Below the pieces are notes generated by a model that saw only the letters and a program-made list of their open reading frames with translations, was not told the DNA's origin and did no database searches. A stretch of DNA of 64,000 nt from Eledone cirrhosa (taxonomy: Eukaryota): NCBI GenBank assembly GCA_964016885.1, contig OZ024751.1, positions 40,920,001 to 40,984,000 on the forward strand, written 5' to 3'. The translations under genes and the position numbers were made by a program. Positions within the stretch are counted from its first letter, which is position 1, and every line of letters begins with the position of its first letter. Below, one piece after another: positions 14,853-57,229 of the stretch.

Positions 14853-15048
14853 TTATCCTGAATTGGTTTTCTCGTTGCTTTGGTCCTTGCGGCTGGCTTA
14901 CCGGTCGCAGTCTTCAATTTGCCAAGCTGTCTAAACGTAATGTTATTACTCTAAGGTAAAATACCTTATTGAGTGCTTAGCTGCACATTCCGATTGCATT
15001 CGTTAGCTTAGCTGCAACTAGAGCTTCGGTTCTGGTGAACTTCCATTT
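14853..15048 (+). mobile_element. (TA)n-flanked PLE-like remnant with the conserved tail hairpin
   Basis: ACTC-TAAGGTA-aaa-TACCTTA-TT-GAGT-GCTT at 14948-14978; TA tracts on both sides. Confidence 0.55.
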
Positions 15049-15139
15049 GTATATATATATATATATATATATATATATATATATATATATATATATATAT
15101 AGAGAGAGAGAGAGAGAGAGAGAGAGAGAGAGAGAGAGA

Positions 15140-15364
15140 GAATTAGTATATCTACCAACATATGTATACAGATGTATACCCATTCTAGCAAATATATATG
15201 TTATGTCTTAGTACCTTTGTGGTTCTATGCAGGGGAATGCAGAACAATTATATGAAAGACGTAAAATAAGAAAATTTTAAAAATTAAAAATTAACTTACT
15301 TACTAATTAGTAAGTAAGTTAATTTTTAATTTTTAAAATTTTCTTATTTTACGTCTTTCATATA
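15140..15364. mobile_element. Repeat ending in a perfect 2x58-bp palindrome (15249-15364); unfolded homolog inverted at ~61060-61235
   Basis: TATATGAAAGACGTAAAATAAG...CTTACTAA|TTAGTAAG...CTTATTTTACGTCTTTCATATA. Confidence 0.8.
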
Positions 15365-15993
15365 TATATATGTATATATAAATATAAATTAGCGAGAATC
15401 GTTTTCAGCTCAGGAATTAACGAAAATCAACGTCCGATATGTGTGGCAAGCGCTCGATGAATCATATGAATCAGAGCTACAACATACGTTAAGGGCCAAA
15501 CACACTGAGATGATGGTTAAACATATCATCCGCACAGCCAAAACAAAACGACCAAGTAATTCGGGTCAAACAATAAAAATATATGTGTTGATACTTTCCC
15601 GGACCCTGGACTGATGGTAAAATCCAGTATTGGTTTCTGCGACTCCAAATCAGGTACTGTCCGCCTACATAAAGAATGTTGGGCTTCTGGTGAGATGATG
15701 AACAAGGAAGTCGTGTTATCAACGGGTTTTGCTCCAAGATGCTATAGATAGTGTGGCTATTACTGACCCCTCGTGGGATTCAGCAAGTATTAATAATAAA
15801 TGTGAAGACTAAAATCCGAAGAGGGATCGATAAGGATAATATATATAAAAATATATAAAAGCAACAATTCTTTAATCTGTTATTTTAATACACACACACA
15901 CACACACACACACACACACACACACACACACACACACACACACACACACACACACACACACACACACATATATATATATATATATATATATAT

Positions 15994-53700: not shown

Positions 53701-55318
53701 TTTAGCTGGCTAAGACACCTTTCCAGACTGCCGCAAACGAGATCAGCCAACCAAACAAAAGGTACTTAGCTGGCTAAGACACCTTTCCAGACTTCCACAA
53801 ACGAGAGATCACCCAACCAAACAAAAGGTACTTAGCTGGCTAAGACACCTTTCCAGACTTCCACAAACGAGATCAGCCAACCAAACAATAGGTACCTTAG
53901 CTGGCTAAGACACCTTTCCAGACTTCCACAAACGAGATCAGCCAACCAAACAATAGGTACCTTAGCTGGCTAGGACACCTTTCCAGACTTCCACAAACGA
54001 GATCAGCCAACCAAACAAAAGGTACTTTAGCTGGCTAAGACACCTTTCCAGACTGCCGCAAACGAGATCAGCCAACCAAACAAAAGGTACTTTAGCTGGC
54101 TAAGACACCTTTCCAGACTGCCGCAAACGAGATCAGCCAACCAAACAAAAGGTACTTAGCTGGCTAAGACACCTTTCCAGACTTCCACAAACGAGAGATC
54201 ACCCAACCAAACAAAAGGTACCTTAGCTGGCTAGGACACCTTTCCAGACTTCCACAAACGAGAGATCACCCAACCAAACAAAAGGTACTTTAGCTGGCTA
54301 AGACACCTTTCCAGACTGCCACAAACGAGATCAGCCAACGAAACAAAAGGTACTTTAGCTGGCTAAGACACCTTTCCAGACTTCCCCAAACGAGATCAGC
54401 CAACCAAACAATAGGTACCTTAGCTGGCTAGGACACCTTTCCAGACTGCCACAAACGAGATCACCCAACCAAACAAAAGGTACCTTAGCTGGCTAAGACA
54501 CCTTTCCAGACTTCCACAAACGAGAGATCACCCAACCAAACAAAAGGTACCTTAGCTGGCTAGGACACCTTTCCAGACTGCCACAAACAAGATCAGCCAA
54601 CCAAACAAAAGGTACTTTAGCTGGCTAAGACACCTTTCCAGACTTCCACAAACGAGAGATCACCCAACCAAACAAAAGGTACCTTAGCTGGCTGGCATAC
54701 CTTTCCAGACTGCCACAAACGAGATCAGCCAACCAAACAAAAGGTACTTTAGCTGGCTAAGACACCTTTCCAGACTTCCACAAACGAGAGATCACCCAAC
54801 CAAACAAAAGGTACCTTAGCTGGCTGGGACACCTTTCCAGACTTCCACAAACGAGATCAGCCAACCAAACAAAAGGTACTTTAGTTGGCTAGGACACCTT
54901 TCCAGACTGCTACAAACGAGATCAGCCAACCAAACAATAGGTACCTTAGCTAGCTAGGACACCTTTCCAGACTGCTACAAACGAGATAAGCCAACCAAAC
55001 AATAGGTACCTTAGCTGGCTGGGACACCTTTCCAGACTTCCACAAACGAGAGATCACCCAACCAAACAAAAGGTACCTTAGCTGGCTGGGACACCTTTCC
55101 AGACTTCCCCAAACGAGATCAGCCAACCAAACAAAAGGTACCTTAGCTGGCTGGGACACCTTTCCAGACTGCTACAAACGAGATCAGCCAACCAAACAAT
55201 AGGTACCTTAGCTGGCTGGGACACCTTTCCAGACTGCCACAAACGAGATCAGCCAACCAAACAAAAGGTACCTTAGCTGGCTGGGACACCAGACTGCCAC
55301 AAACGGGGTCAGCCAATT
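50768..55318. repeat. 65-bp satellite, about 70 highly similar copies
   Basis: GACACCTTTCCAGACTKCCACAAACGAGATCAGCCAACCAAACAAWAGGTACYTTAGCTGGCTAR, period 65 (50779, 50844). Confidence 0.97.
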
Positions 55319-56849
55319 AAACTTTGCGCTGGGTTGCGGGAGGCTAAAGAAAACGAGGAAAGAAGACCTAAAATGAATCGGCATTGGAACATTGTGTAAA
55401 GTCTATGACTGATGAACAAGGATTGGAAGGATGTATCTGCCCTGACTGGGGATAGGAAATAGTTACATTAACCCCACTGACTGCCTCATGTGTCTCAAGA
55501 CGTACGAACTCCTGTGTCTAAGTCTAAATATAGTCATGTACATCGATTAAAAACAGCACCAGAATTGCGGCATTAAAATTTATATATCAACTCTAAGTTT
55601 GAAATTTTCTTTTCATAATTCTCTGAGAAAATGCGTCAGTGAATTATAAACACTGAGCGAAATTGACAGAACGAAAGAAAAAAATAGAAAAAACATGTGT
55701 GATCATGTTTCTATTGAAGGGTTTACATTAAATATTTCACAAAACAGAGATTATTATTATTATTATTATTATTATTATTATTTTTATTGAAAACACTGTA
55801 TTAAATCACATAAAAGTGCAATTGAATCAAAAATTCTATACGAACAAACAAGTAGCAGAGAATAAATAAATAAATAATTGACAGCAATATTTAGTATATG
55901 AAAATGAAGTCGTGGCTGACCGAATCAGTGGCGTGACGAATTAATTGTAGATGTTCGCAGTACTGTATTATATTCCAACAAAAGATGTACATCTGAACCT
56001 TATATAAAACGCATGTCTCATTCATATGTATTGGGTTGTAGCATAAACTCCCGCCGTCTTTTATTAAGAAGTTTTATAACAACGGCGGGAATTGTTACAA
56101 TCCAATATATATATATATATATGTGTGTGTGTGTGTCTGTGTGTGTGTAGAGAGAGAGAGAGAGAGAGAGAGAGAGAGAGAGAGAGAGAGAGAGAGAGAG
56201 AGAGAGAGAGAGAGAGAGAGAGAGAGAGATGCGTGTGTGAGTAAGTATCTACATATATAGAGGCAACTGGAGGATGTTTTCTTCTCACTCTGCGCAACGC
56301 AAGATCCTTTCTTTCTTCTTTCTACATCGTTATCACCCATCCTAGATGTCGTCTGTATGTGTCATTTATCTAACGGCAGGGAAACCGATCACAATATCGC
56401 TACCCGACATTATATCCATGTTTTCTTTCATCGGATTGTCTTTGTTCTTCCCTGAGGTATTAAAAACAAAATGTCGATTATATTCTATGTCTTGTCTGGT
56501 CTTTACTGTACGTGATACATCCTCAGGTATTTAAACACTAATTGCTTCGGTTGTTTGTCGTCTGTTTCTTCGTCTGTTTTTTGTTTTGTCTGACAATTAT
56601 ACTAAAACATACTAAAACAATTCCTCCAAGCGTGAAACCTATTATGATTTTGTAATTTTGCAACCCTGTGTTAATTTTTTTTTTTTTTCCACACTTACGC
56701 GGCCCACCTGCCATTGAAACCTGGATAACTACTCGGAATACGGATTACCAAGGATTAACCAGCCTACTGATTGTCGGACTTTGAACTATATATACATATA
56801 TATATATATATATATATATATATATATATATATATATATATATATATAT

Positions 56850-57229
56850 TCATTTAGGTTTGTTGGTTCACCACTGGATAGAACTGGTCATTCCGTATAG
56901 TCAACCTTGATGTAATATTAGGGAGAGCACTCGACGTAATGTAACTCACCCGTTTTCGTTTGTGTTGTTGTTGGTGGTGCGAGTACGGAGTTAATTATTA
57001 TAAAATAACAGGAGGTTGGACTGGTTTAATTCCTTAAAGGTTTATTATACTATGAACATTTCAATGACCGGGTTCTGTATGAATCCGTTGACATCATCAG
57101 GTATTCGGAAATTTATCCAACAAAGGAATATAATAATTGACACAATCCAAGGGGCTTGGATTGTGTTGTTCATAGTATAATAAACCTTTAAGGAATTAAA
57201 CCAGTCCAATCTCCTGTTATTTTATAATA
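56850..57229. mobile_element. Hammerhead-bearing fold-back element 4 in (TA)n
   Basis: 63-bp inverted arms 56996-57058 and 57167-57229; internal hairpin ACACAATCCAAG..CTTGGATTGTGT; tail hairpin 56925-56991. Confidence 0.8.
57047..57104 (-). ncRNA. Degenerate type I hammerhead ribozyme
   Basis: minus ATAC-CTGATGA-[..CGGATTC-ataca-GAACCCG..]-GAAA-TGTTCA-TA-GTAT; base of stem II is mismatched. Confidence 0.55.

Follow-up and report, generated by a model that had tools for sequence, protein, structure and literature searches.

A 64,000-nt stretch of the Eledone cirrhosa genome (contig OZ024751.1, positions 40,920,001 to 40,984,000 of the forward strand; hereafter the window) carries TA-embedded elements, in families A to G and an eighth family, that each bear a short hairpin with an ACTC/GAGT-type outer stem, an inner stem of variable sequence and a U bulge. 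Judged from their sequences, the carriers are ends of Hydra-clade Penelope-like elements (PLEs), and of non-coding derivatives of these, inserted in (TA)n. The hairpin (hairpin 1) is one of a tandem pair, and the pair is a real and conserved cis module, apparently not described before, in a retroelement clade that is itself known. It probably comprises two putative RNA docking sites that set the start points of the reverse transcriptase (RT), which would give the 'tail' and the inverted repeat known from PLE insertions.

A tandem hairpin pair and its carriers

All seven hairpins that an initial annotation had reported in the window were found at its coordinates and on its strands, with paired inner stems. 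The motif is far more frequent than background. A strict pattern matched the host genome, which is 3.0 Gb in size and rich in microsatellites, 109,831 times (54,780 + 55,051), versus 3,069 times (1,639 + 1,430) for a reversed-pattern control. In 400 kb of unselected DNA from eight arbitrary places, there were 24 strict matches versus one for the control; a TA run lay 25–95 nt downstream of 21 of the 24, and an inverted arm stood beside 14. Covariation was scored by anchored column counts and shuffles on 88 distinct hairpins picked without a pairing filter; two MAFFT alignments lost the register of both anchors across the variable loops. Inner pairs 1, 2 and 3 were paired in 83, 82 and 78 of the 88, which bears out the annotated view that the inner stem varies yet pairs. 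The outer stem keeps its pairing but not the invariance ascribed to it, as its first pair was A-T in 65 and G-C in 23 of the 88 hairpins (mismatch in none) and is T-A in some second hairpins. The unpaired invariant bases are the U bulge and RCU.

The single tail hairpin of the annotation is a real motif but only half of the structure, since a tandem second copy had been missed. In tandem copies of family E, a second hairpin of like form (GCTC-stem-TA-GAGC-ACT) lies 6 nt past the tail and is followed by an ATG. The module runs from a hammerhead through site 1, hairpin 1, a spacer of 37–81 nt, site 2 and hairpin 2 to the ATG of the RT-endonuclease open reading frame (ORF), where sites 1 and 2 are the points just 5' of the hairpins at which insertion ends map. 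A two-hairpin pattern gave 1,298 matches versus 15 for its control, and a longer-spacer version, which added families F and G, gave 106 versus none. Among 30 two-hairpin loci, 27 were read-through units (24 with an ATG-led Hydra-type frame after hairpin 2, in families B, C, D and others) and three were unrelated. Hairpin 2 was present in read-through copies of all seven window families and, in one read-through copy (L322), of the eighth family; read-through copies related to family F (L191, L195, L197) carry both hairpin 2 and the ORF. Hairpin 2 of family A and the eighth family has a TCTC/GAGA stem and a loop of 70–90 nt (~70 nt in family A). The sequence 3' of hairpin 1 is complementary to that 3' of hairpin 2 (10 lineages; 20 of 200,000 permutations), and the closing helix between these two flanks encloses site 2 and hairpin 2.

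Longer hairpin copies extend upstream into RT and GIY-YIG coding sequence. A protein search of the genome with one RT fragment returned 23,830 first-look candidates, and about 44 of the 150 matches listed, counted by eye, had open frames of at least 784 residues. Family E has intact full-length copies, some of them in tandem arrays of 3.54-kb units. Its single ORF of 723 aa encodes an RT (LYRDD at 347) and then a C-terminal GIY-YIG domain (VIY..YIG at 591), with RLRWR at 35, DKT at 117, CxCx5C at 572, CNLC at 670 and CKH at 698; CCHH is absent, with no Cys pair between GIY and YIG. The published marks of the Hydra clade are an RT with C-terminal GIY-YIG, RW[K/R], DKT, a CxCx5C linker, CxxC, CxH and no CCHH (PMC8557442; this and the other papers are cited here for parts of their texts). 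A Pfam search gave no match for the ORF. Families B, C, D and F are tied to the RT ORF by the protein N-terminus directly after hairpin 2 and by tblastn. A predicted type I hammerhead core with its stems is visible in the sequences of families B, C and D, and in the predicted hammerhead of family E a U3-A8 core replaces C3-G8 and stem II is long. None was seen in short F copies, and an Rfam search of the window at gathering thresholds found no hammerhead. The core precedes the hairpin by 103–111 nt in most families, and by 144 nt in family E. The insertions lie in (TA)n, with tandem and inverted copies and a one-sided tail. 'Inverted repeat plus tail' ends are already known for PLEs (PMC8557442, PMC3846280), and the RT-GIY-YIG link, the Hydra-clade marks and the upstream hammerheads identify the element as such an end. 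The elements of the window, annotated as unrelated, are instead families of one clade or derivatives of that clade. A hairpin-ended DNA transposon of the HUH/Helitron or IS200 type was rejected, as the ORF beside the hairpins encodes the RT-GIY-YIG protein.

Family E (L031–L050) is young: uninterrupted ORFs are numerous in it, and its 3.54-kb units stand in tandem, as many as five to an array. Elsewhere in the genome (G000:C1:14233475-14242924; L101–L130), a satellite of at least 9 kb is built of 58-bp units that consist of family E hairpin 1 plus ~30 nt.

The module was also found in marine relatives chosen by protein alone. This set comprised 77 loci from a homologue search, a 57-protein alignment and a metagenome scan; the 50 with a locatable ORF start were used (27 were left out), and 260 nt upstream of the start was examined. 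At least one strict hairpin was present in 39 of the 50, two were present in 21, and one locus had a hairpin on the antisense strand; relaxed anchors gave two hairpins in 34 of the 50. Inner pairs 1–3 were paired in 61, 49 and 49 of 71 hairpins, versus shuffle means of 49, 29 and 29 (0 of 5,000 each). The closing helix had a mean of -11.9 kcal/mol, versus -5.9 kcal/mol with permuted partners (25 non-redundant elements; 0 of 100,000 permutations), and the element's own flank was the best partner in 13 of the 25. Hairpin 2 ended 12–64 nt upstream of the ORF start in 31 marine loci. By fold, the predicted protein model of one marine relative (pLDDT 90.7) matched telomerase TERT best (E = 7e-9). 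Among the six Hydra consensi of PMC8557442 (coral, sea cucumber, sea louse, octopus), inspected by eye, three carry the plain motif and two a variant, and one plain consensus has both hairpins at its 5' start and a 3' end that stops 2 nt before the first. No hairpin was found in the Naiad and Chlamys consensi among the word matches listed (the first 7–8 places per term). Four marine loci (L281, L310, L312, L309) have variant hairpins, with a TCTC/GAGA outer stem and TCT replacing RCT, and are natural controls for the importance of these bases.

Both hairpins are also kept in units without an ORF. Family A is a non-coding tandem unit that itself lacks RT homology; it measures 546–594 nt in nine loci (one of 307 nt), and its relatives form tandem units of 608 and 611 nt with hammerhead-like cores. 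The non-coding families have YUGANRA cores like those of family E; core-like motifs and stem I are present, and folding gave no clean hammerhead. In the loci tested, read-through copies of family G had no RT homology after hairpin 2. Because they have hammerhead-like cores and no RT homology of their own, family A and its relatives look like retrozyme-type passengers, and on this sequence evidence the non-coding tandem units are candidate retrozymes or circular RNAs. An antisense ORF in these families was considered and rejected, as its frames shift between families and stops occur in most of the 150 copies listed. No RNA sequencing was listed for one family E stretch, the sole stretch searched. 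Loci L353–L372, L211–L235 and L162, together with window positions 14854–15049 and 15381–15800, form one group of non-coding 550–610-nt tandem units.

Insertion ends and the 7-nt offset

Insertion ends were mapped by comparing 19 read-through references with 181 sources (the window and 180 loci), and 30 satellite loci were dropped. At these mostly motif-selected loci, 180 of 198 TA-abutting ends lay 1–15 nt 5' of a hairpin (73 at hairpin 1 and 107 at hairpin 2), as did 100 of 116 when family E was left out. Nine of the 18 others were the hammerhead's own TA palindrome; this palindrome draws no real ends, and the ends track each hairpin separately. Of 44 TA-abutting ends in the unselected 400 kb, 42 lay close to one hairpin on its 5' side (~7 nt); 20 of these belonged to site 1 and 22 to site 2. 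In the marine set, 9 of 10 informative ends had the same position immediately 5' of a hairpin. A junction can be placed only within an interval, since TA letters are common to template and target. All intervals include -6 to -8 relative to the hairpin, and the last copied base lies ~7 ± 1 nt 5' of it once the TA overlap is allowed for. This offset stays at ~7 nt though the distance between hairpins 1 and 2 spans 76–147 nt. The annotation had the inverted arm of five fold-back elements stop 4–7 nt before ACTC; with the bases shared with the TA target counted, the distance is 3–7 nt, and six of the seven elements fold back, the one at 29939–30058 adding a short arm.

The two kinds of end are combined within insertions. 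In unselected DNA, 12 of 13 two-ended insertions had one end of each kind, where free choice would give about half, and in the selected loci the count was 41 of 44. Hairpin 2 is absent from tail-ended insertions and sits just beyond the other end, and the position of the fold-back junction varies widely. According to the annotation, the repeat end of PLEs might be set by a signal acting in cis. This suggestion gains support from the constant offset, the covarying stems and the association with the RT-GIY-YIG ORF, but one of its variants, a template-switch boundary, has become less likely, because the offset concerns the ends joined to the target while fold-back junctions vary widely.

Possible mechanism and alternative explanations

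We suggest that two RT-endonuclease molecules would bind the two hairpins on a sense RNA, one each, and that the docked enzymes would nick both strands of the (TA)n target. Each hairpin would place the template ~7 nt 5' of it into the active site, where TA-like template bases could pair with the nicked (TA)n for priming. Copying from site 2 would take in hairpin 1 and the spacer, which would form the 'tail', copying from site 1 would give the inverted arm without a tail, and the two cDNAs would join head to head at variable points. ORF-less tandem units that keep both hairpins would borrow the same enzyme in trans. Such docking would account for the offset and the one-of-each ends, and would explain why tailed ends lack hairpin 2 and why non-coding units keep the hairpins. 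A PLE of the Poseidon clade, the anole element PAc of Frangieh et al. 2024, offers a biochemical likeness: in vitro its RT starts at two internal sites, which agree with genomic ends and lie on either side of the tail, extension takes place on both target strands, a dimer is predicted, and a binding element lies near the pLTR-ORF junction (PMC11167929).

Several observations weigh against this proposal. Within their loci, 95 of 179 ends had no partner. The longer arm was of one kind in 9 insertions and of the other in 4, with 13 equal and 26 of 52 unresolved or without a site-1 start; either arm can thus be longer, and the arms show no strict leading/trailing order along a single RNA. Eleven of the 50 marine loci had no strict hairpin (some being too short or variant), marine inner pair 4 showed no covariation, and one of the six Hydra consensi of PMC8557442 had, by eye, no clear hairpin copy. 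The shuffle and permutation tests ignore kinship among families. Free-energy folding of the whole region produced both hairpins only in some families and missed several, including family E. The excess of G·U over A·C in the hairpin stems (26:10 in the 88-hairpin set and 16:8 in the marine set) fixes the strand weakly, and the closing helix, without a G·U bias (28 vs 35), is uninformative on strand. Furthermore, the RT starts of PAc have no target homology (PMC11167929), unlike the TA-like sites here.

Among the alternatives, the one that survives best places the hairpins in DNA, on a single-stranded or cruciform intermediate, where they would guide a GIY-YIG cut ~7 nt away at TA-like bases and trim the product to its two ends. 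Both sites and the target are TA-like, the closing helix has no strand bias, the tail has been attributed to endonuclease resolution (PMC8557442), and earlier work reported in PMC11167929 found the tail to be required for endonuclease recognition. However, G·U in the hairpin stems is skewed to the sense strand, the ribozyme adjoins the structure on the same strand, and RT starts have been mapped directly to both ends in another PLE (PMC11167929), so that we consider DNA trimming unlikely. Somewhat less likely still, the hairpins may direct the formation of RNA 3' ends ~7 nt upstream, by a host nuclease, self-cleavage or termination, followed by ordinary target-primed reverse transcription from those ends. 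The fixed offset would suit a ruler-like cut, and the invariant unpaired bases (the U bulge and RCU) might act as a signal for a nuclease or for catalysis, but one end of each kind per insertion is hard to obtain from separately cut RNAs, uncut RNA supports internal initiation in another PLE (PMC11167929), and the hairpins match no Rfam ribozyme model. It is improbable that the structure is a 5'-leader translation element or an internal promoter which ends adjoin for another cause, such as local TA-like sequence: it does lie close upstream of the ORF, 3' of a hammerhead that on cutting would produce RNA without a cap, but both hairpins are kept in ORF-less units, and the ends follow each hairpin rather than the TA palindrome of the hammerhead.

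Beyond two docking sites that set RT starts, a more far-reaching proposal can be made, which we consider slightly less likely than not. Hydra PLEs may share a phylum-spanning RNA module of ~110–170 nt in which two identical protein-binding hairpins on a long helix load an RT dimer on one RNA and program twin priming from both target strands, so that each insertion would be sealed at both ends by RT. The same module could be the signal that animal retrozymes steal, in effect a portable RT-loading tag.

Relation to known systems and elements of the window

In telomerase RNA, a template boundary element, a helix beside the template, limits copying by the RT; it stops copying, whereas the hairpins here would mark starts. 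In L1 twin priming, priming from both target strands creates an inversion, but the second site is not fixed and the inverted part is not duplicated, unlike in the elements described here.

The clade, the tail, the inverted repeats, the hammerheads and the two-start principle are already known. Craig et al. 2021 described for the Hydra clade the same protein marks, hammerhead, (TA)n targets and tandem and inverted copies as found here (PMC8557442). The main text of that paper does not use the word 'hairpin', and the sections cited here do not describe the motif, although three of its six Hydra consensi carry the hairpin plainly and two as a variant; the 3.54-kb unit of family E also departs from its rule of under 3 kb for the clade. 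For PAc, the parts of PMC11167929 cited here define no cis structure beyond an 'AC-rich stem loop', the short stretch of RNA in its Figure S1 shows no RCTC/GAGY hairpin, and the starts lie within the ORF, whereas the putative starts here lie in the leader. Non-LTR retrozymes (PMC7229834; bioRxiv 10.64898/2026.07.22.740005) consist of non-coding units in tandem, have a type I hammerhead-like core and are proposed to borrow PLE enzymes; family A and its relatives appear to agree with this. The units here are longer (546–611 nt versus the published 170–400 nt), have variant cores and show a cis signal in common, whereas the cited parts of these two sources name none. The 3' stem-loops of LINEs and SINEs (eel UnaL2, PMC1636434) and the R2 3' UTR likewise use an RNA stem with an internal loop for RT recognition, in common with non-autonomous partners. 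They are, however, single elements within the copied sequence and upstream of the start, while the present elements have a pair, each member of which lies downstream of its putative start and outside the cDNA that would be made from there.

Word searches of the accessible text of PMC8557442, PMC4209133, PMC7229834, PMC3846280, PMC13282606, PMC10085705 and the 2026 retrozyme preprint found no description of the hairpin pair. More broadly, no description of the duplicated hairpin, the closing helix, the 7-nt ruler or the one-of-each rule was found in the literature searched or in Rfam, a scope outside which lay Repbase, Dfam, Pyatkov 2004, Schostak 2008 and figure images. The Rfam 15 covariance models gave no match over the hairpin pair within the window, and on 15 loci their matches were confined to hammerheads in other parts of the locus and to repeat matches below threshold, none on the hairpins. 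The origin of the one-sided PLE tail and inverted repeats, and the RNA feature seen by the RT, are stated open questions (PMC8557442, PMC11167929). The pair is a precisely defined candidate whose predictions reach the level of single bases (two hairpins, a ruler of 7 nt and the closing helix), which makes this mechanistic question directly testable, and the young intact copies in the genome suit such tests. It also ties PLEs to retrozyme-like units through a concrete feature in cis. With ~110,000 strict matches in the genome, it is moreover an easy guide for finding Hydra elements and placing their real limits during annotation.

Within the window, hairpin 1 of family A (14948..14977, +) lies in an element at ~14854–15049 between TA runs that has no arm. 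An eighth hairpin, absent from the initial annotation, lies at 15449..15477 (-) and has a GCTC/GAGC outer stem and a 68-nt tail to TA; its element has a hammerhead-like core at 15597–15729. The family B fold-back insertion (16365..16777, -) has arms at 16445–16580 and 16650–16785, a hammerhead at 16495–16557 and hairpin 1 at 16423–16445, with one site-1 and one site-2 end. That of family C (28608..28967, +) has arms at 28599–28712 and 28767–28880, a hammerhead at 28765–28825 and hairpin 1 at 28881–28908, and is linked to the ORF via L093 and L096. In family D (29215..29644, -), the arms lie at 29305–29421 and 29535–29651, the hammerhead at 29344–29410 and hairpin 1 at 29270–29297, with the ORF link via L071 and L062. 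The family E fold-back insertion (29669..29868, -) contains the 3' half of a hammerhead (29763–29795), hairpin 1 (29714–29740) and a 45-nt tail, and a second family E insertion (61304..61419, +) has a site-1 and a site-2 end and has lost the 5' half of hairpin 1. The mini fold-back of family F (29939..30058, -) has hairpin 1 at 29984–30011 and a 45-nt tail. The family G fold-back insertion (56850..57226, -) has arms at 56996–57065 and 57160–57229, a hammerhead at 57045–57104 and a long-loop hairpin 1 at 56926–56991.

Other repeats were observed nearby. A family E-like fragment at 16180–16287 (-) has a site-1 end and a hairpin that is degenerate and cut off. A TA-flanked fold-back without a hairpin (15240–15360) adjoins the eighth element and has related sequence at 61100–61160. 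A 65-bp tandem array of ~69 copies (94% matched) occupies 50756–55290, and further 64-bp arrays lie at 22818–23404. The repeat at 33928–34180 is a tandem pair of 129 bp; this region and 28310–28430 resemble what we take to be tRNA-like SINE heads.

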